Assembly: GCA_015065455.1 (NCBI GenBank)
Contig: SVQI01000001.1
Coordinates: 61,090 to 125,089, forward strand
From: Oscillospiraceae bacterium
GTDB taxonomy: Bacteria; Bacillota; Clostridia; Oscillospirales; CAG-272
Length of the DNA stretch: 64,000 bases
Direction: 5' to 3'
In this document: piece by piece, positions 6,922-63,692 of the stretch
Layout of the letters: every line of letters begins with the position of its first letter
Numbering within the stretch: the first letter of the stretch is position 1
Notes under the pieces: generated by a model
Databases searched by the model: none
The model's input: the letters and a program-made list of their open reading frames with translations, nothing else
Told to the model about the DNA's origin: nothing
Translations under genes and position numbers: made by a program

Positions 6922-6955
6922 AGCTCCCCGAAAAAATCGGGGAGCTTATTTTTAT
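6922..6955 (+). terminator. Intrinsic terminator of the lipoprotein gene
   Basis: AGCTCCCCGA-aaaaa-TCGGGGAGCT followed by a T-rich run. Confidence 0.8.
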
Positions 6956-6957
6956 TA

Positions 6958-7203
6958 TAAAACGGGCGGACAAACAAATCCGCCCCTACATAGTTAGGCT
7001 TTATTGTCTTGCTGTGCGTGTTCGAGATCCTTCGCTGCGCCGCCACGATGTCATTCTTGAGCGAAGCGAAGAATCCCGTGGCGGCTTGCTCAAGGATGAC
7101 AAACGAACACGCAATATAACGCGCTCCCGCGTTTTTTTAAAAGAGGCACAGATTGTCAGCTTCTTCGCTCCCGAACTCTTGACACCGCAAAAACTTTAAA
7201 TAG
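6958..7203 (+). repeat. Mosaic intergenic repeat, locus F (modules R, K, degenerate T, truncated H)
   Basis: Near-identical to 23425-23700 over the R and K modules. Lies in the convergent spacer between the lipoprotein gene and rplS. Confidence 0.9.
7015..7113 (+). repeat. Module K copy (orientation a)
   Basis: TGCGTGTTCG ... CGAACACGCA terminal inverted repeats enclose interleaved repeats B-C-D-B'-C'-D'. The C/C' pair is CCGCCACG/CGTGGCGG. Confidence 0.85.
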
Positions 7204-7235
7204 ATAATCATTTATTATTTTTCTATATTATTTTC

Positions 7236-10300: not shown

Positions 10301-10909
10301 ATGCTTAACTGGGATTTGGAAAACGAAATAAAGCTGCAAGGATACAACGTTATATGCGGCTGTGATGAAGCGGGCAGAGGTCCGCTTGCGGGCGAAGTTG
10401 CCGCCGCCGCTTGTATACTGCCGCAGGGAATTGAAATAAAAGGCCTTAACGACTCAAAAAAACTTTCCGAAAAGAAAAGAGAGGAGCTTTTTAAGGTCAT
10501 ACAGGAAGCATCGATAAGCTGTGCTGTTGCAACCTGCTCGGTTCAGGAGATTGAAGAATACAACATTCTCGAATGTGCGCTTCTCGCTATGAGAAGAGCT
10601 GTTGAAATGCTTGACGTAAAGCCCGAATTTATTCTTGTTGACGGAAATATAAACAGAGGGTTCAGTCTTCCTTCAAAGGCTGTTATCGGCGGAGATGCAA
10701 AATCGCCCAATATTGCCGCCGCATCCATACTCGCAAAGGTTACGAGGGACAGACTGTGCTATCAGCTCGACGAAAAATACCCCATGTACGGATTTGCAAA
10801 ACACAAGGGCTACGCGACCAAAGAGCACAGAGAGGCAATTTTGAAATACGGCCCCTGCCCCGAACACAGAAGTCTTTTCTTGCGCAAGATTTTAAACAAA
10901 GATGAGTAA
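10301..10909 (+). CDS. rnhB: Ribonuclease HII
   Basis: CGCDEAGRGPLAGEV and LNDSKKLS motifs are present. The size and the position after rbgA both fit. Confidence 0.9.
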   Translation: MLNWDLENEIKLQGYNVICGCDEAGRGPLAGEVAAAACILPQGIEIKGLNDSKKLSEKKREELFKVIQEASISCAVATCSVQEIEEYNILECALLAMRRAVEMLDVKPEFILVDGNINRGFSLPSKAVIGGDAKSPNIAAASILAKVTRDRLCYQLDEKYPMYGFAKHKGYATKEHREAILKYGPCPEHRSLFLRKILNKDE

Positions 10910-19064: not shown

Positions 19065-19404
19065 AGTAAGACGTGAGAATAGCCCCCTACAAATCTTAAG
19101 TTGCTAATAATTTAGACGACCTCATCCGTCGCGCCGCGTTATATAACAATATATATTTAAATATAATGGCGGCACGCCACCTTCTCCCACCGGAGAAGGC
19201 GCAAAATTAGTGCAAATTATAAGTAATAAAAAATATTTTATGAAATCATAAGACAATGATATAAAAACAAAAGACAAAGACTGTACTCTGTGCCTTCTCC
19301 AGTGGAAGAAGGTGGCACACCGCATACAGATTTTGTTTTTACAAATATAAAAAGCAGTGTGACGGATGAGTTCGTCTATCATACCAAATATTTCACTAAT
19401 TTTT

Positions 19405-19590
19405 ACCTCCATCTGACGAGGGAGGTGGCTCGGCAATAAACAGATATACAGTATAACTATTCTTTGTTGCCGAGACGGAGGGAGAGATATACGTTAATTA
19501 TCTGATTGCAATACTGTTTGTTTAAACCGTTCGTTTTTCTCTCCCTCAGTCAAAAACAAGTTTTTGACAGCTCCCTCCTCAGATGGAGCT
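19405..19590 (+). repeat. Module N, complete copy (nested hairpins, MITE-like 18-bp terminal inverted repeats)
   Basis: The outer arms are CTCCATCTGACGAGGGAG and CTCCCTCCTCAGATGGAG. They enclose three hairpins: CTCGGCAA/TTGCCGAG, GACGGAGGGAGAGA/TCTCTCCCTCAGTC and GTCAAAAAC-aa-GTTTTTGAC. Confidence 0.8.
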
Positions 19591-19708
19591 AAAAGATACA
19601 TTTTTAAAAAACCGAGGCGTCGAGGAAGGGGTTCCCCGAAACGCACGAAGTAAGTTTTGGGGGTTCTCGTGTGCGCCGTCCCCTACCAAATTAGGCAATA
19701 CCACTTTT

Positions 19709-19840
19709 GCAAACCAAGGGGGGTACCGAGGGAGGAACGCCCTCGGTCGTTTCAAGGGTTGGGTTCAAAGGGAGGGGAAATCGAAATCCCCGCCCTTTGT
19801 GCCTTCTTTGGTTACTTTCTTGGCACGCAAGAAAGTAACG
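19709..19840 (+). repeat. Module S copy 2
   Basis: Same architecture. The G-rich hairpin is AAAGGGAGGGGA-aatcgaaa-TCCCCGCCCTTT. Invariant hairpin at 19811-19839. Confidence 0.7.
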
Positions 19841-19933
19841 TAAAAAAGCAAAAGACAATATTATCTAATTAAAACGTTTGCTTTCTCTCCCTCAGTCAAC
19901 TTCGTTGACAGCGTCTACTGCGGTTCGGTCACG

Positions 19934-19981
19934 GCTCGAGAATGACAACGCGGCGGCGCAGCGAAGGATCCCGAACACGCA
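19934..19981 (-). repeat. Module K half copy (orientation b)
   Basis: GCTCGAGAATGACAACGCGGCGGCGCAGCGAAGGATCCCGAACACGCA equals the right half of the locus G copy. Confidence 0.8.
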
Positions 19982-20170
19982 ATTTAACGCGCTCTCGAAC
20001 CCTTGACAAAAGGGGCTTTTTAAAAAAAGCCCCTCTTGACTCCCCCAAAACTTTTAATAAAAATTTTTATATTATTATTTTAAAATAATATTTTAATTGC
20101 GCTTTTTGAAAAAAACTCCTTTGAAATCCGCAAAAACTTTAATAAGAATTTTAATTCTTATGCTTTGTGA

Positions 20171-23394: not shown

Positions 23395-23416
23395 GGAGCT
23401 AAAAAGCTCCTTTTTT
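23395..23416 (+). terminator. Intrinsic terminator after the HAD phosphatase gene
   Basis: GGAGCT-aaaa-AGCTCC followed by TTTTTT. Confidence 0.7.
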
Positions 23417-23424
23417 GTTGTTAA

Positions 23425-23700
23425 AAAACGGTCGGACAAACAAATCCGCCCCTACATAGTTAGGCTTTATTGTCTTACTGTGCGTGTTCTAGATCCTTCG
23501 CTGCGCCGCCACGATGTCATTCTTGAGCGAAGCGAAGAATCCCGTGGCGGCTTGCTCAAGGATGACAAACGAACACGCAATATAACACGCTCCCGCGTTT
23601 TTTAAAAGGAGTCCATACAATCAGGAGCTTCGCTCCCGAACCCATACAAAAGGAGCGCTTTTAAAAAAGCGCCCTCTTGACTCCCTCAAAACTTTAAAAA
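23425..23700 (+). repeat. Mosaic intergenic repeat, locus F2 (modules R, K, T-like, H)
   Basis: Aligns with 6958-7203 and 62596-62820. Confidence 0.9.
23481..23579 (+). repeat. Module K copy (orientation a)
   Basis: Near-identical to 7015-7113. Confidence 0.85.
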
Positions 23701-39402: not shown

Positions 39403-40239
39403 ATGAACAACAACATTCAAGCAAGAACTCCCACAAGAAGAAAAAGACCACCTCAAAAGAAGTACAACAAAACAGGCAGACTTTTGCTCGTTATGGCGGT
39501 AGCTTCATTGTTAGCAATACTCGTAATATTTATTGTTGGATTTATTATAGGATACAGATACATTACGGTAAAAACAGACGACGGAACTATTAAATATTTT
39601 GGCACCGTTGATGCTACCGGTATGCTGAAAAAAGGCACTCTTTATTTCTCAAACGGAAACAAAGGTCTGGTTGACGGCAAAAAGAGTACAATAACCTATA
39701 CAAACGGCGACGTTTATACCGGCGGATTATCCCAGCTTCAGAAAAACGGCGAGGGAACACTGAAATATAAGAACGGAGACGTTTACGAGGGTGGATTTAA
39801 GGACAATCAGTTCTCGGGAAAAGGCGTATTTAAATACAAAAACGGAGACGTTTACGAGGGCGAATATAAAGAAGGTCTTATGGACGGAGAAGGAAAATAC
39901 ACCTGGTCCGACGGCTCTTCTTACGAGGGTGAATTTAAAGCAAACAAGCGTAACGGCCTCGGAAAATTTACAATAACCGATAGCTCATACTACGAAGGCA
40001 GCTACGTGAATGATGCAAAAGAAGGCAAGGGTAAGTATGTTTTTGAAAACGGCGACGTTTACGAAGGCGACTACAAAGCCGACATCAGAACAGGCAAAGG
40101 CACGTACACCTGGGCAAACGGTGAATGCTATACGGGTGATTTTGTAAACAACGATATGCACGGCTACGGCAAATACACATGGCCAAGCGGCAGAGTCTAC
40201 GAAGGCAAATTCCATCAGGGAAAAATTGTTGTTGAATAA
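39403..40239 (+). CDS. MORN-repeat membrane-anchored protein
   Basis: One N-terminal TM helix, then about 9 tandem repeats of Y.NGD.YEG....G...G.G. Confidence 0.75.
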   Translation: MNNNIQARTPTRRKRPPQKKYNKTGRLLLVMAVASLLAILVIFIVGFIIGYRYITVKTDDGTIKYFGTVDATGMLKKGTLYFSNGNKGLVDGKKSTITYTNGDVYTGGLSQLQKNGEGTLKYKNGDVYEGGFKDNQFSGKGVFKYKNGDVYEGEYKEGLMDGEGKYTWSDGSSYEGEFKANKRNGLGKFTITDSSYYEGSYVNDAKEGKGKYVFENGDVYEGDYKADIRTGKGTYTWANGECYTGDFVNNDMHGYGKYTWPSGRVYEGKFHQGKIVVE

Positions 40240-40248
40240 TAGAAATTT

Positions 40249-40281
40249 AATGCGCTGTTTTAACAAACAGCGCATTTTTTA
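40249..40281 (+). terminator. Intrinsic terminator after the MORN-repeat gene
   Basis: AATGCGCTGTTT-taac-AAACAGCGCATT running into TTTTTT. Confidence 0.75.
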
Positions 40282-40287
40282 TATTAT

Positions 40288-40960
40288 GTTGTCGGGTCGG
40301 AGGGAGAGATAATTGTTAATTATTTGATTGCAATATTGTTTGTTTAAACCGTTCATTTTTCTCTCCCTCAGTCAAAAACAAGTTTTTGACAGCTCCCTCG
40401 TCAGATGGAGCTAAAAGATACATTTTTAAAAAATCGGGACGTCGAGGAAGGGGTTCCCCGAAACGCACGAAGTAAGTTTTGAGGGTTCTCGTGTGCGCCG
40501 TCCCCTACCAAATTAGGCAATACCACTTTTGCAAACCAAGGGGGGTACCGAGGGAGGAACGCCCTCGGCCGTTTGAAAGGGAGGGGTCAAGGGGAGGGGA
40601 GGATCGGAACTCCCTCTCCCCTTTGTGCCTTCTTTGGTTACTTTCTTGGCACGCAAGAAAGTAACGTAAAAAAAGAAAAGACAATATTATCTGTTTAAAA
40701 CGTTTGCTTTTCTCTCCCTCAGTCAAAAACAAGTTTTTGACAGCGTCTACTGCGGTTCGGTCACGGCTCGGCTCTGACATCACACCGTGATGTCATTCAC
40801 TCCCTCGCCGCCGCTTCGCTACCTCGTCAGATGGAGCCGAGAATTACGCGCTTCGCGCGTAAAAAGACACAGAATGTCAGCTTCTTTGCTCCCAAACCCA
40901 CACAAGAGGAGAACTTTTAAAAAAGTGCCCTCTTGACTCCCTCAAAACTTTTAATAAAAA
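40288..40960 (+). repeat. Mosaic intergenic repeat, locus C (5'-truncated N, L, S, N-arm fragment, degenerate K, T, H)
   Basis: 40291-40666 aligns almost base for base with 19466-19840. Confidence 0.9.
40531..40666 (+). repeat. Module S copy 3
   Basis: Same architecture. Invariant hairpin at 40637-40665. Confidence 0.7.
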
Positions 40961-40983
40961 ATATTATATTATTTTTTTCAAAT

Positions 40984-41018
40984 CAAAAGACATTATTCAA
41001 AAGAATAATGTCTTTTTT
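40984..41018. terminator. Hairpin terminator at the 3' end of the XRE-membrane gene (stronger T-run on the + strand)
   Basis: AAGACATTATTC-aaaa-GAATAATGTCTT. TTTTTT follows on the + strand and TTTTGATTT on the - strand. Confidence 0.55.
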
Positions 41019-45342: not shown

Positions 45343-45760
45343 GAGGGTACCGAGAAAAAAACATTTTAACCCCCAAAAAACAAAAAGTATAACCTAACTT
45401 TCCATCTTTTGCAAACCAAGGAGGGTTCCGAGGGAGGAACGCCCTCGGCCGTTTGAAAGGGAGGGGTCAAGGGGAGGGGAGGATCGGAACTCTCCTCCCC
45501 TTTGTGCCTTCTTTGGTTACTTTCTTGGCACGCAAGAAAGTAACGTAAAAAAGAAAAGACAATATTATCTGTTTGAAACGTTTGCTTTTCTCTCCCTCAG
45601 TCATTTTCTAACGAAAATGCCAGCTCCCTCGTCAGATGGAGCCGAGAATTACGCGCTTCGCGCGTAAAAAGGCACAGAATGTCAGGAGCTTCGCTCCCGA
45701 ACCCACACAAAAGGAGCGCTTTTAAAAAAGCGCCCTCTTGACTCCCCCAAAACTTTTAAA
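45343..45760 (+). repeat. Mosaic intergenic repeat, locus D (S with an alternative leader, N right arm, T, H)
   Basis: Starts 2 nt after the stop codon of the GT8-acyltransferase fusion, with no terminator in between. The S module is near-identical to locus C. Confidence 0.9.
45411..45545 (+). repeat. Module S copy 4
   Basis: The G-rich hairpin AAGGGGAGGGGAG-gatcggaa-CTCTCCTCCCCTT pairs fully with one G-T. Invariant hairpin at 45516-45544. Confidence 0.7.
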
Positions 45761-45771
45761 TATTAAATAAT

Positions 45772-50678: not shown

Positions 50679-50772
50679 AATTATTGAAATTTTTTGAAGA
50701 TTCCAAAGGGGCTTTTTTCAAAAAGCCCCTTTGGCGTGGTTTCAGGAGTGGAACTCCTGACATTTTGTGCCT
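50679..50772 (-). repeat. Mosaic intergenic repeat, locus I (reverse orientation; second T hairpin plus H)
   Basis: The reverse complement reads GGCACAAAATGTCAGGAGTTCCACTCCTGAAACCACGCCAAAGGGGCTTTTTGAAAAAAGCCCCTTTGGAATC... This is collinear with GGCACAGAATGTCAGGAGCTTCGCTCCCGAACCCACACAAAAGGAGCGCTTTTAAAAAAGCGCCCTCTTGACTC at 45671-45742. Confidence 0.8.
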
Positions 50773-55671: not shown

Positions 55672-55694
55672 TATTTACATCAAAAGTGGTGTGT

Positions 55695-56117
55695 ATAAAA
55701 CAAAAAGTATAACCTAACCTTCCATCTTTCGCAAACGATGGGGGTGCAAAGGGGGTAATCCCCCTTTGTCGTTTGGTGGTTGGGGGTCGAGGGGGAGGAG
55801 GAATCGGAACCTCCGCCCCCTTGTGCCTTCTTTGGTTACTTTCTTGGCACGCAAGAAAGTAACATAAAAAAGAAAAAGACAATATTATTTAGCCAAACAA
55901 TACGTTTTAAAACAAAAAAACGCTCTCGCGTTTTTCAAAGGAGCACAAACAATCAGGAGCTTCGCTCCCGAACCCACACAAAAGGAGCACTTTTGAAAAA
56001 GTGCCCTCTTGACTCCCTCAAAACTTTTAATAAAAAATTATATATTATTTTTTAAGATAATATTTTAATTACGCTTTTTGAAAAAAGCTCCTTTGGAATC
56101 CGCAAAAACTTTTATTA
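55695..56117 (+). repeat. Mosaic intergenic repeat, locus E (S with an alternative leader, partial T, H, H')
   Basis: It shares the leader ACAAAAAGTATAACCTAAC(C/T)TTCCATCTT with locus D. It has the invariant hairpin at 55835-55863 and H modules at 55980-56117. Confidence 0.9.
55731..55864 (+). repeat. Module S copy 5 (most divergent)
   Basis: Hairpin 1 is replaced by the unrelated CAAAGGGGG-taat-CCCCCTTTG. The G-rich hairpin is GGGGGAGGAGG-aatcggaa-CCTCCGCCCCC. Invariant hairpin at 55835-55863. Confidence 0.7.
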
Positions 56118-56120
56118 AAA

Positions 56121-56153
56121 CAAAAAAAGACGGCTGTTTAAACCGTCTTTTTA
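56121..56153. terminator. Bidirectional terminator (serves ackA on the minus strand)
   Basis: AAGACGG-ctgtttaaa-CCGTCTT flanked by A7 upstream and T-rich sequence downstream. Confidence 0.7.
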
Positions 56154-60107: not shown

Positions 60108-60163
60108 TTCTCTAATTCAAAAAAGTTTTGCAAATTTGACCTCCTTATGAGGAGATAAAATTA

Positions 60164-60262
60164 TGCGTGTTCGATTGTCATCCTTGAGCAAGCCGCCGCG
60201 AGATTCTTCGCTACGCTCGAGAATGACAACGCGGCGGCGCAGCGAAGGATCCCGAACACGCA
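60164..60262 (-). repeat. Module K copy (orientation b, inverted relative to its downstream flank)
   Basis: The 79-nt interior equals the reverse complement of the interior of 62647-62745 at every position I checked by hand. Confidence 0.85.
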
Positions 60263-60343
60263 ATTTAACGCGCTCCCGAACCCACACCAAAGGTGCTTTT
60301 TGAAAAAAACTCCTTTGGAATCCGCAAAAACTTTTAATAAAAA
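60164..60343 (+). repeat. Mosaic intergenic repeat, locus G (K in inverted orientation, then an H/H' hybrid)
   Basis: 60164-60262 is the exact reverse complement of the K core at 62648-62744. The downstream flank AATTTAACGCGCTCCCGAACCC is in the same orientation as at locus H. Confidence 0.9.
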
Positions 60344-60459
60344 TTTTTTATATTATTTTTTCAAAATAATTATCTTTTGTTTTCCTGCGCCGACAGCGTT
60401 TACTCTTAAAAAATTCACATAAAATTTAACAAATTTTAGTGTATTTCTTCCAAAAGGTC

Positions 60460-60488
60460 TTGATTTAAGACAAGATTTGGGATAAAAT
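60460..60488 (+). promoter_or_regulatory. Putative fba promoter
   Basis: TTGATT, a 17-nt spacer, then TAAAAT. Confidence 0.4.
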
Positions 60489-60536
60489 ATATAAGATGGA
60501 AAAAATTATTATTTAAATAAACAAGGAGTGTACATC

Positions 60537-61502
60537 ATGGCATTAGTTACAACAAAAGAGATGTTTAAAAAGGCTTATGAAGGCGGTTACGCTATCGGCG
60601 CTTTTAACATCAACAATATGGAAATCGTTCAGGCTATCACAGAAGCAGCTCAGGAACTCAACTCTCCCGTAGTTCTTCAGGTTTCCGCAGGTGCAAGAAA
60701 GTACGCAAAGCACGAATACCTTATGGCTTTGGCTAACGCTGCTATTAAGGACACAGGCATTGATATTGCTCTCCACCTCGACCACGGCGCAGATTTTGAA
60801 ATCTGTAAAGCATGTATCGACGGCGGATTTACTTCAGTTATGATCGACGGTTCTCACCACTCTTTCGAGGACAACATCGCTGTTACAAAGAAGGTTGTTG
60901 AATACGCTCACGCTCACGGTTGCGTTGTTGAAGGTGAGCTTGGCAGACTCGCAGGCGTTGAAGACGACGTTAAGGTTTCTGCTGAGGATTCTTCTTACAC
61001 TCGTCCCGAAGAAGTTGAAGAGTTCGTAACTCGCACAGGCGTTGACTCTCTCGCTATAGCTATCGGAACAAGCCACGGCGCATACAAGTTTACTCCCGAA
61101 CAGTGCACAAGAAACGAAAACGGCATTCTCGTTCCCCCTCCGCTCCGTTTTGACATTCTCGAAGAAGTTGAAAAGAGACTTCCCGGATTCCCGATCGTTC
61201 TTCACGGCGCATCTTCCGTTTCTCAGGAAGCTGTTAAGGAAATCAACGAAAAGGGCGGAAAAATGCCCGACGCTATCGGTATTCCCGAAGAACAGCTCAG
61301 AAAAGCTGCAGGTATGGCAGTATGTAAGATTAATATCGACTCTGACATCAGACTTGCTATGACAGCAGGTATCCGCAGAGTATTCACAGAGAACCCCTCC
61401 GCATTCGACCCCAGAGAATACCTCAAGGTTGGTAGAGAAGAAGTTCGCAAGATGGTTGCTCATAAGATCGTAAACGTTCTCGGTTCCAACGGCAAAATGT
61501 AA
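60537..61502 (+). CDS. fba: Class II fructose-1,6-bisphosphate aldolase
   Basis: GYAIGAFNINNME, the LHLDHG zinc site and GTSHGAYKF. The start is set at the ATG at 60537, 8 nt after AAGGAG. Confidence 0.95.
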   Translation: MALVTTKEMFKKAYEGGYAIGAFNINNMEIVQAITEAAQELNSPVVLQVSAGARKYAKHEYLMALANAAIKDTGIDIALHLDHGADFEICKACIDGGFTSVMIDGSHHSFEDNIAVTKKVVEYAHAHGCVVEGELGRLAGVEDDVKVSAEDSSYTRPEEVEEFVTRTGVDSLAIAIGTSHGAYKFTPEQCTRNENGILVPPPLRFDILEEVEKRLPGFPIVLHGASSVSQEAVKEINEKGGKMPDAIGIPEEQLRKAAGMAVCKINIDSDIRLAMTAGIRRVFTENPSAFDPREYLKVGREEVRKMVAHKIVNVLGSNGKM

Positions 61503-61529
61503 TCTGCTCCGAGCAACGCTACGTAATTT

Positions 61530-62252
61530 ATGATTTACACCGAAGAATACAGAATCAACAGCCACGACTGCGACCTTAACGGCTTCGCAAGACCGTCAGC
61601 AATTCTTCGTTATATGCACGAAACCGCAAACTTACAGCTAAACGAATACGGACCGTCAAACGACGCTTTAAGAGCAGACGGCAAGGCTTTCATTCTTAGT
61701 AAAATCAACCTCAGTTTCTACTGCGCCCTGAAGGCGTTTGATAGAATAAGGGTGGAAACCTGGGCTTGTGAAAGCCGAGGCGTAAGCTTTTACCGCTGTA
61801 CGAGGGTGTTGAAGGACAACGACCTCGTAGCTGAAATGGTTGGCGTATTTGCTTTGGTTGACATAAATAACAAGAGCCTTTGCAGAGTTTCTGATATCAA
61901 ATTCGGCTTTGACGAAGAATCGACGATGCTCGAGCTTGACCTTCCCGCGAGATTCAGAATACCCGAAGGGGTTGACCTCGCGTTGCAGGGTGAATATACC
62001 GTCAGCTACAGCGATACCGACGAAAATATGCATATGAACAATACGAATTACCTCGATTTGTTCTGCAATTTTCTTCCCGATAATAAGAATAACCGAGTAA
62101 TTACGGCGGTTATTAATTACCAGTCCGAAGCTCCTATCGGAGAAACGGTGAAGATTTATCGCGGAGAAGACGACGACGTGTATTATTTCAGAACGGTTCG
62201 CCACGACGGCGCGGTTAATTCCGAGTCGCGCATTATGGTTGACAGAATTTAA
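61530..62252 (+). CDS. Acyl-ACP thioesterase family protein
   Basis: Double hot-dog size (240 aa) and the N-terminal Y.I.S.D.D..G......IL.Y..E.A pattern. Confidence 0.75.
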   Translation: MIYTEEYRINSHDCDLNGFARPSAILRYMHETANLQLNEYGPSNDALRADGKAFILSKINLSFYCALKAFDRIRVETWACESRGVSFYRCTRVLKDNDLVAEMVGVFALVDINNKSLCRVSDIKFGFDEESTMLELDLPARFRIPEGVDLALQGEYTVSYSDTDENMHMNNTNYLDLFCNFLPDNKNNRVITAVINYQSEAPIGETVKIYRGEDDDVYYFRTVRHDGAVNSESRIMVDRI

Positions 62253-62259
62253 AAATATG

Positions 62260-62296
62260 ATACCGTTGCATTTTTACGTGCAACGGTATTTTTTTG
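62260..62296 (+). terminator. Intrinsic terminator after the thioesterase gene
   Basis: ATACCGTTGCA-tttttac(g)-TGCAACGGTAT followed by TTTTTTT. Confidence 0.8.
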
Positions 62297-62383
62297 CATT
62301 ACGGGCGGATAGCAAAAACCACCCTACTCACAGATAAGGTCAAAGGATAGAAATTGAACAGAGACGAATTTGCACTAACTTTT

Positions 62384-62571
62384 ACCTCCATCTGACGAGG
62401 GAGGTGGCTCGGCAGTCAGCAAATATCAATTTTAATTTATCTTTGCTGCCGAGACGGAGGGAGAGATATGTGTTAGATTTTTGATTGCAATATTGTGTGT
62501 TTAAACCGTTCGTTCTTCTCTCCCTCAGTCATTTTCTAACAAAAATGCCAGCTCCCTCGTCAGATGGAGCT
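62384..62571 (+). repeat. Module N, complete copy
   Basis: Same outer arms (CTCCATCTGACGAGGGAG / CTCCCTCGTCAGATGGAG). The first hairpin is compensated to CTCGGCAG/CTGCCGAG. The third hairpin is replaced by CATTTTC-taac-(A)AAAATG. Confidence 0.8.
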
Positions 62572-62646
62572 AAAAAGTTAGATTATTTCGGGAAAACGGA
62601 CGTATAGCAAAAACGCCCCTACAATTTTAGGGTTTATTGTCTTAAC

Positions 62647-62745
62647 CGCGTGTTCGGGATCCTTCGCTGCGCCGCCGCGTTGTCATTCTCGAGCGTAGCG
62701 AAGAATCTCGCGGCGGCTTGCTCAAGGATGACAATCGAACACGCA
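62647..62745 (+). repeat. Module K copy (orientation a)
   Basis: Same layout. The C/C' pair is CCGCCGCG/CGCGGCGG, a compensated change relative to locus F. Confidence 0.85.
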
Positions 62746-62962
62746 ATTTAACGCGCTCCCGAACCCACACAAGAGGTGCACTTTTGAAAAAGTGCCCTCT
62801 TGACTCCCTCAAAACTTTTAATAAAAATTTTTATATTATTTTAATTGCGCTTTTGAAAAAAGCTCCTTTGGAATCCGCAAAAACTTTAAATAGAAAAATA
62901 TCTTTACATTTTTTTATTAGTATGTTATACTAAAATGAGAGATAATATATATAAAAAAAGGG

Positions 62963-63304
62963 GTGTTACGTGTGGAAAATAACGTTTGCGACAACAAGGA
63001 TATTGCTTTTATTTGCGACGAAATGAAAAGACTTTTTGACATCGAATTGCTCGTTGTTTTCGGCATTAAACGCAGAGAAAAAGACAATGCAGTTACCGAC
63101 CTCGATATTTGCGTCGTTTGCGAACACGATAACAAAAACGCGTGGATTAAAAAAGCTTACCTCGAAATTGACAGCGATATTCCTTTTGATATTTCTCTGT
63201 ACACACCGTCGGAGTGGAACAGCTTAATTGAAAAACCCGAGAGCTTCGCCTCCCGAATTTTGCGAAAGGGGTGTGTAGTTTATGGCAAGACGCAAAACCA
63301 GTGA
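62963..63304 (+). CDS. Minimal nucleotidyltransferase (MNT) domain protein, putative antitoxin partner
   Basis: Pol-beta NTase pattern LLVVFGIKRREKDNAVTDLDICVV. GTG start at 62963, or at 62972 with an AAGGGG RBS 9 nt upstream. Confidence 0.7.
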   Translation: MLRVENNVCDNKDIAFICDEMKRLFDIELLVVFGIKRREKDNAVTDLDICVVCEHDNKNAWIKKAYLEIDSDIPFDISLYTPSEWNSLIEKPESFASRILRKGCVVYGKTQNQ

Positions 63305-63692
63305 CAGCAAGGTTTACACCGATTGGTTGATTTACGCCGAAAACGACCTCCGCGCCGCCGCTCTTCTGCGAAGAAGTCCGCATACGCTTTTGCTTTCCGC
63401 TTTTCATTCACATCAGGCAATCGAGAAAACCATCAAGGCTTTTATGCTTTCAAATAAGGGATACGCGCCCGACGGGCACAATATAATATTTTTGTGCAAG
63501 ATGGCGTCAAGGATAAACGAAGGATTTTTTGACTGGATTGACGAGTGCGTCGCACTCAACAACTACTACGTTCAAACAAGATATCCGCCCGACTTTCCTC
63601 TCGAAATCGACAAGGCAACCGCAAAGAAGCTTTCGATTATGGCGCAGAATCTATATAAATTTACGCTCAACGAGCTTGCTAAATTTGAGTAA
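63282..63692 (+). CDS. HEPN domain protein, putative toxin partner of the MNT
   Basis: HEPN pattern A..DL..A..L.......A.F..HQAIEK.IKAF...G....GHN...L and the C-terminal YYVQTRYP. The gene overlaps the MNT gene by 23 nt. Confidence 0.7.
   Translation: MARRKTSDSKVYTDWLIYAENDLRAAALLRRSPHTLLLSAFHSHQAIEKTIKAFMLSNKGYAPDGHNIIFLCKMASRINEGFFDWIDECVALNNYYVQTRYPPDFPLEIDKATAKKLSIMAQNLYKFTLNELAKFE

Follow-up and report, generated by a model that had tools for sequence, protein, structure and literature searches.

Recombination breakpoints and inverton look-alikes: a hairpin repeat of two polarities in the mosaic intergenic arrays of an Oscillospiraceae bacterium

A 64,000-nt stretch of an Oscillospiraceae genome (GenBank assembly GCA_015065455.1, contig SVQI01000001.1, positions 61,090 to 125,089; hereafter the window) contains, 2.4 kb apart, two copies of a short palindromic repeat, here labeled K, that lie in opposite orientations beside the same downstream flank. 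This arrangement raises the question of whether the interior of K flips in place, in the manner of an inverton, or whether K is an independently inserting element that lands either way round, the two explanations put forward by a first-pass annotation of this DNA. The evidence gathered here favors a third answer, to which we give a probability of roughly 0.5: K would be a palindromic repeat of fixed polarity, comparable to repetitive extragenic palindromic (REP) and enterobacterial repetitive intergenic consensus (ERIC) sequences, and would serve as a module of polar arrays and not as a switch. Coordinates are those of the window throughout; polarity A designates the orientation of the copy at 60164 and polarity B that of the copy at 62647, and the contigs and loci retrieved for comparison are referred to by L numbers of three digits.

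The two focal copies (60164–60261 and 62648–62745) are reverse complements of each other over 98 nt at 100% identity (0 mismatches, 0 expected by chance), and their polarity is unambiguous, the self reverse complement in register agreeing at just 22 of the 79 interior bases. To the right of each stands a 26-nt flank, AATTTAACGCGCTCCCGAACCCACAC, which is identical and direct at the two loci. All full copies bear at both ends a 9-nt terminal inverted repeat, GCGTGTTCG/CGAACACGC, with one mismatch in the left repeat of the copy at 23481; this motif has eight exact matches in the window against 0.47 expected, every one of them at an end of K, and three of the four full copies add a tenth nucleotide through a flanking T/A, the 62647 copy having a C on its left side. 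The 64 kb hold 4.5 copies in all, each of them intergenic. Those at 7015 and 23481 share the polarity of the 62647 copy and are 91–92% identical to the focal pair, while the half copy at 19934 has the polarity of the 60164 copy (100% identical over 47 nt) and is read as a deletion product because it is joined to another module, N, at a GCTCG microhomology. The geometry described in the first-pass annotation (exactly opposed focal copies, a common flank in one orientation, and the polarities of the three other copies) is therefore confirmed, and its terminal repeats of 9–10 bp hold at 9 nt, the tenth being present in three of the four full copies.

Mosaic arrays lie in ten intergenic regions of the window (Table 1). 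Their short modules, roughly a dozen in number and K among them, are labeled Q, S, N, G, D6, J, K, L, M, P1, and P2 and run approximately in the order Q-S-N-Q′-G-D6-J-K-L-M-P1-P2. In a module map of these arrays none of the other modules departs from a single order and strand, save that the array at 50680 is turned round in its entirety; K alone occurs both ways. Taken together, the ten arrays look as though they had been derived by deletion from a longer composite repeat. The short form of L that follows both focal copies corresponds to the long L-M form (7114–7184) minus the stretch between two GCTCCCG direct repeats, i.e., a deletion scar. The left neighbor of K varies (J, unique sequence at 60164, or module N at 19934), but the junctions are regular: wherever L follows K, in eight arrays, the two meet at one and the same base, L being missing just in L024, and the boundary between J and K is likewise constant to the base although the last bases of J differ. 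Comparison of the flanks of nine full K copies revealed no target-site duplication, and no J-L junction devoid of K (an empty site) was found among the arrays examined. In the relative represented by L020, with a thioesterase 89% identical, the spacer orthologous to that between the 106-aa protein gene and fba retains the upstream terminator and the fba promoter region, yet between the two lies a wholly different set of modules devoid of K (L020 positions 1590–2050 versus window 60108–60404). Since the genes are kept and the modules are not, the mosaic content turns over faster than the genes.

The orthologous-locus comparison that the first-pass annotation had proposed as a check was carried out with other assemblies recovered by exact-protein look-ups, which provided consensus sequences from two to six samples per locus. 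Look-ups with the conserved neighbors (L19, a 605-aa protein, HAD, and the 106-aa protein) returned near-identical strains only, L020 being the sole divergent orthologous locus. Every locus showed one polarity in every retrieved assembly. Relative to L-P1-P2 and the nucleotidyltransferase (NTase) gene, the 62647 locus is of polarity B in the window and in L001, L023, L028, L029, L030, and L031 (six samples); the 7015 locus is B in L016, L017, and L040–L042, the 23481 locus is B in L014 and L015, and the 60164 locus is A in L001, L013, and L023. Both polarities nevertheless occur between the same neighbors, with J-K(B)-L found three times in the window and J-K(A)-L′ in L002. A 784-nt contig, L043, even contains two tandem J-K-L-P2 arrays with K in opposite polarities and with the J-K and K-L boundaries at the same bases. 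The presence of K both ways between J and L implies either that the segment between the terminal repeats was once inverted exactly or that K entered the junction both ways. An A/G difference located 3 nt to the left of K tracks polarity, TTAACC preceding K(B) in the window, L030, and L031 and TTAGCC preceding K(A) in L002 and in L024, whose locus is unrelated to that of L002. This association suggests two propagated lineages of arrays rather than frequent switching. Furthermore, no promoter-like site was found inside K on either strand, and both strands fold equally well; either strand forming an equally stable hairpin, flipping should change little.

The structure of K itself points to maintenance of a hairpin. 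K is a nested imperfect palindrome of 98–99 bp whose two strands are predicted to fold as RNA at −48 and −46.8 kcal/mol with z-scores of about −4 to −5 (−48 kcal/mol and z = −4.8 for the 60164 copy), and as DNA at about −30 kcal/mol (−30.9 kcal/mol for the 60164 copy). Four helices are stacked in it: the 9–10 bp terminal repeat, ATCCTT/AAGGAT, GCCGCCGCG/CGCGGCGGC, and an apical hairpin, GTCATTCTCGAGCGTAGCGAAGAATC, referred to as motif X. The layout is that of a reverse-complemented X whose loop is split by the block GCCGCCGCG–X–CGCGGCGGC; X thus lies within reverse-complemented X, which makes K a nested palindrome. Five copies from the source species (four from the window and one from L024) were aligned with those of an Oscillospiraceae metagenome-assembled genome (MAG; L006) and of a Eubacteriales MAG (L004). 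Compensatory changes are seen at 6 of the 33 pairs, one inner-stem pair occurring as G-C, A-U, and C-G, and in L006 the outer stem is swapped for CCCCTGCG/CGCAGGGG around a core that is still 89–92% identical (65–79 nt across relatives). Covariation and the replacement of the outer stem around a kept core indicate that pairing is maintained and that the unit conserved across taxa is the core, not the ends. This core is found in other Clostridia families in unrelated contexts (L004, L006, and L039). A pattern scan of genome contigs with the K arm GGCGGCTTGCTCAAGGATGAC gave two real K-like matches, both in other Clostridia, and left the source species unmatched; in metagenome contigs the same pattern met chance coding matches only. 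The peptide encoded by K, compared with 1.84 billion representative proteins, hit 10 clusters of spurious open reading frames (ORFs), from which it follows that the K core is present in further organisms. In Rfam, K matched no family at the gathering threshold, and relaxing to the E-value threshold yielded no meaningful match; searches of plasmid and phage collections were negative, and a literature search by sequence found the core in no bacterial paper, its one find being the loop motif shared with the Cycas mitochondrial Bpu element.

The only candidate for a flip at an orthologous locus turned out to be a rearrangement. L002, whose left flank is identical to the window at 1389 of 1390 positions and whose K is of polarity A, was first read as an in-place inversion. 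This was rejected, its right flank being about 90% similar before giving way to different genes (KH, S16, and ffh), and the reciprocal product, L030, being present in the same sample with the window's K(B)-L-P1-P2-NTase on the right and a helicase gene on the left. The markers within J are reciprocal as well (GGACGTA...AACC before K(B) in the window, GGACGTA...AGCC before K(A) in L002, and GGGCGGA...AACC before K(B) in L030). One homologous crossover within J would explain both L002 and L030, with a partner array of the form helicase-J′-K(A)-L′-...-KH that we infer and have not observed. Because of the reciprocal J markers and the exchanged right flank, L002 is therefore a rearrangement, not an in-place inversion. 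More generally, what lies to the left of K(B)-L-P1-P2-NTase/HEPN, the constant right side, takes four forms in different samples: the thioesterase gene (the window type, at least nine contigs), the helicase gene (L030 and four similar contigs), a gene for a leucine-rich-repeat (LRR) protein (L031), and the reverse complement of L-fba (L023). The arrays are where homologous recombination between strains has its breakpoints. K or its immediate surroundings form the end of several contigs (L015, L017, L034, L041, and L042), which is what one expects of a dispersed repeat.

According to the explanation that we favor, K is a hairpin module of polar mosaic arrays lying in many intergenic regions, and the focal copies are paralogs of the same subfamily that hold opposite, locus-fixed polarities. 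The difference in polarity would go back to a rare event in which the stretch between the terminal repeats was inverted, probably by replication strand-switching at the base of the very stable hairpin, between the 10-bp repeats that the hairpin brings together. Duplication, along with recombination from array to array or gene conversion, would then have carried both forms to further loci. Such an inversion at the hairpin's base is preferred to insertion because of the missing target duplication, the missing empty J-L junction, and the constancy of the K-L boundary in eight arrays. Several points weigh against this explanation. The assemblies are consensus sequences, and the look-ups hide contigs with the same neighboring genes, so that a minority orientation or flipped contigs could have been missed. 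The copies of subfamily 1 are 100% identical in both polarities, which fits recent flipping as well as gene conversion; the identity of the focal pair is for its part not proof of a recent flip, because gene conversion can keep inverted copies identical. The strand-switch origin is deduced, no intermediate or recent flip having been caught, and the conservation of the core in other Clostridia hints at a mobility or a function that the explanation leaves unexplained.

What else could account for K? It might be a non-autonomous mobile element, akin to a MITE (miniature inverted-repeat transposable element) or a REPIN, that is moved in trans by a transposase whose gene lies elsewhere in the genome and inserted in either orientation at a preferred site on the left edge of L. 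Its terminal inverted repeats and hairpin, its changing left neighbors, its single occurrence without L (L024), and the recurrence of its core in other families and in the 10 ORF clusters all agree with mobility, as does its absence from the fba spacer of L020, although L020 differs in the whole mosaic and not in K alone. The first-pass proposal of a palindrome-ended element landing either way stands to the extent that K does occur in both polarities between J and L; for independent insertion, neither a target duplication nor an empty junction was found, and the invariable K-L junction also weighs against it. The conservation of the core with variable ends is the opposite of what REPINs show, and plasmids and phages yielded no match. 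As the first-pass annotation had stated, the window encodes no recombinase: Pfam scans of 40 window ORFs and the gene tables of overlapping loci show housekeeping genes only. Nor is a transposase encoded there. Neither a recombinase nor a transposase was found in about 25 kb of further source-species sequence (mostly L024 and L002) or in about 15 kb from other taxa, and no Y1_Tnp match was obtained in the window and the 25 kb of the source species. Mobility in this sense is unlikely. The inverton explanation fares considerably worse and is very unlikely. It supposes that a recombinase encoded elsewhere flips the 79-bp interior and thereby changes whether transcription terminates or reads through into the promoter-like modules downstream. 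The flip is exact, with the terminal repeats as its limits, both polarities lie between identical neighbors, promoter-like modules do follow K, and small size alone would not exclude it, most invertons called by PhaseFinder being shorter than 300 bases (PMC11602134). On the other hand, no retrieved locus has both orientations, its sole candidate, L002, is accounted for by a crossover in J, K has no promoter-like site and is equally stable on either strand, and no recombinase is encoded nearby. Outer repeats that differ between taxa around a conserved core fit a stem better than a recombinase site. In addition, a spacer of 79 bp is very short for the synapsis of two sites on a single duplex. 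More improbable still is the idea that a dedicated activity, for hairpin processing or recombination, is encoded elsewhere in the genome, takes K as its substrate, and flips the 79-bp core in place, much as viral terminal hairpins flip and flop. The polar arrays would then be programmable sites of micro-inversion and larger rearrangement, and the core conserved in several Clostridia families would be the recognition element of that activity.

A further possibility complements the fixed-polarity explanation instead of competing with it. As a by-product, the focal copies form a perfect 98-bp inverted pair 2.4 kb apart, which would be a RecA substrate able to invert the segment between them, and the functional unit might be this pair, with both arrangements of the fba-thioesterase segment present in nature. 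Contig L023 (JGI 3300023714, 939 nt) is exactly the junction predicted for such an inversion: its positions 1–622 are the reverse complement of window 60164–60785 with 1 mismatch, and its positions 525–939 match window 62648–63062 at 100%. The focal copies are 100% identical versus 91–92% for the other window copies, which fits ongoing exchange within the pair, and recA is present in the species (L024). Against this, L023 is a single short contig, and a mis-join through the 98-nt repeat could give the same sequence. The reciprocal junction did not turn up in a search through the ORF starting at 60163, which gave no called protein, and fba lies upstream of the NTase gene in none of the about 15 informative contigs among 18. 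The segment also has its own promoter, and no regulatory consequence is apparent. On balance, the odds that the 2.4-kb inversion is real are about even, and the broader proposal that the pair is the functional unit falls somewhat short of that.

Fragments reminiscent of K were encountered in other settings. Viral contigs contain no K and only the stand-alone apical hairpin motif: X (TTGTCATTCTKGAGCGWAGCGAAGAATCTCCC) occurs alone in the IMG/VR contigs L035–L038, e.g., at 10862–10887 of L036. X therefore stands as a unit by itself, and K has the look of X set inside a reversed X. In the loop of X (window 62691–62707), the 13-nt sequence GAGCGTAGCGAAG agrees at every base with a part of Bpu, a short interspersed element of 36 nt in Cycas mitochondria (PMC8297867); in the L006 copy the match lengthens to 15 nt (TGAGCGTAGCGAAGG), which may reflect coincidence or a shared family of hairpin elements. 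Within module N (40793–40827), GTCATTCACTCCCTCGCCGCCGCTTCGCTACCTCG resembles the left half of K(A) (GTCAT...GCCGCCGC...TTCGCTAC) and is perhaps the remnant of a K that has decayed within that module. Q and Q′, of which one has TTTTACCTCCATCTGACGAGGGAGGTGGC and the other its complement, make up an inverted pair over a long range at 62380–62408/62547–62575 and again at 19401–19429/19571–19594. The former pair encloses about 140 nt with a second, inner pairing (62453–62466/62517–62530), and the whole may be a structured element of about 195 nt, for which Rfam gave no meaningful match. A hammerhead-like motif in module Q (CTGACGAG) was considered and received no support from Rfam.

Table 1. Positions of K copies, neighboring modules, and mosaic arrays in the window
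Feature	Position	Strand	Remarks
K copy, polarity A	60164–60262	+	GTCATCCTTGAGCAAGCC read first; upstream of fba
K copy, polarity B	62647–62745	−	Reverse-complements the 60164 copy exactly; NTase/HEPN gene pair downstream
Left terminal repeat GCGTGTTCG, 60164 copy	60165–60173		Partner CGAACACGC at 60253–60261
Left terminal repeat, 62647 copy	62648–62656		Partner at 62736–62744
K copy, polarity B, subfamily 2	7015–7113	−	Inner stem GCCGCCACG/CGTGGCGGC; J on one side, long L-M on the other
K copy, polarity B, subfamily 2	23481–23579	−	
Half K, polarity A	19934–19981	+	Followed by L; fused to module N at GCTCG microhomology
Module L, short form	60262–60287	+	Directly after K(A)
Module L, short form	62745–62770	+	Directly after K(B); identical to 60262–60287
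Module J	62596–62647	+	Directly before K(B); putative site of the crossover yielding L002 and L030
Modules P1 and P2	62772–62896	+	After L; promoter-like, yet facing convergent genes elsewhere
Mosaic arrays	300–600, 6945–7230, 19390–20170, 23410–23700, 40200–40990, 45370–45770, 50680–50750, 55690–56130, 60108–60404, 62290–62920		

The genes of the window include dnaG, rpoD, dnaB, gidA, gidB, two parB and one parA, clpP/clpX, ftsH, tilS, ackA, and fba, all of them housekeeping. Together with a strong bias of genes toward the plus strand, this content indicates an origin-proximal, leading-strand region. The segment between the focal copies (60263–62646) carries fba (60537–61502), with its own promoter-like site at 60460–60488, and an acyl-ACP thioesterase gene (61530–62252). 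Directly downstream of K(B)-L-P1-P2, a small NTase gene and a HEPN gene overlap (62963–63692), and the pair looks like a toxin-antitoxin pair. Another promoter-like site (60136–60164; TTGACC, 17-nt spacer, AATTAT) ends on the very base with which K(A) begins; were it active, a transcript heading to fba would have K(A) at its 5′ end. Elsewhere, tandem 69-nt repeats (39694–40079) lie within a gene for a MORN-repeat protein (39403–40239).

K and its arrays amount to an undescribed family of a known kind of repeat in uncultured Clostridia of the gut or rumen, a group for which the cataloging of such repeats is poor. The most useful outcome of this analysis is the documentation of these arrays as recombination breakpoints and inverton look-alikes. 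Elements such as K mimic invertons for detectors based on inverted repeats, and K illustrates in detail what is likely a false positive of that sort. Metagenome assemblies break at the arrays, which, as breakpoints of real rearrangements at the strain level, affect MAG scaffolding and synteny analysis. If the 2.4-kb inversion is real, it would set a highly expressed glycolytic gene, fba, against the prevailing gene direction of an origin-proximal region, where it would probably be head-on to replication, judging from a replication direction deduced from gene-strand bias.

Among known systems, K shares with invertons the short inverted repeats around a short segment seen both ways, and differs from them in that neither dual orientation at one locus (at the level of consensus assemblies) nor an internal promoter nor a recombinase was found in the sequence examined. 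REPINs have conserved REP ends and a free spacer (PMC3337134) and are mobilized by the REP-associated tyrosine transposases known as RAYTs (Bertels and Rainey, PMC3116915, PMC3337134). Like them, K measures about 100 bp, occurs in many extragenic copies and in higher-order arrangements, and forms a hairpin with inverted ends and compensatory changes. In contrast to REPINs, its core is conserved across taxa while its outer stem varies, and no RAYT was seen in the window or in the 25 kb of additional source-species sequence. ERIC sequences (also called intergenic repeat units) and Correia-type elements, which are MITE-like, are likewise imperfect palindromes of about 100–150 bp that are intergenic, lie in either orientation, and are present or absent at orthologous sites. 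K has the terminal inverted repeats of a MITE and, unlike these families, is without a TA or other target duplication and is set at one fixed junction inside larger arrays instead of being scattered. In the non-coding DNA of chloroplasts, small segments at the base of hairpins are found flipped between lineages without a dedicated recombinase. The segment between the short inverted repeats is what changes direction in both cases, which makes these inversions a mechanistic analog of the flip proposed for K, with the differences that the genome is of another type and that the flipped segment of K is itself a conserved dispersed repeat. The bacterial interspersed mosaic elements (BIMEs) of enterobacteria, built on REP units, come nearer still. 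No homology of K to enterobacterial palindromic units or to a curated family emerged (Rfam; no bacterial paper with the core), its 98 bp in three nested stems differ from a palindromic unit of about 35–40 bp, its host is a Clostridia bacterium, and K is not known to bind IHF, gyrase, or Pol I. Yet in both systems intergenic arrays of a few short conserved modules are laid out in a fixed order, one imperfect palindrome among them lies either way, and the arrays, which vary from one close relative to the next, serve as sites of recombination. By this analogy, K is closest in its behavior to the palindromic unit of enterobacterial BIMEs.

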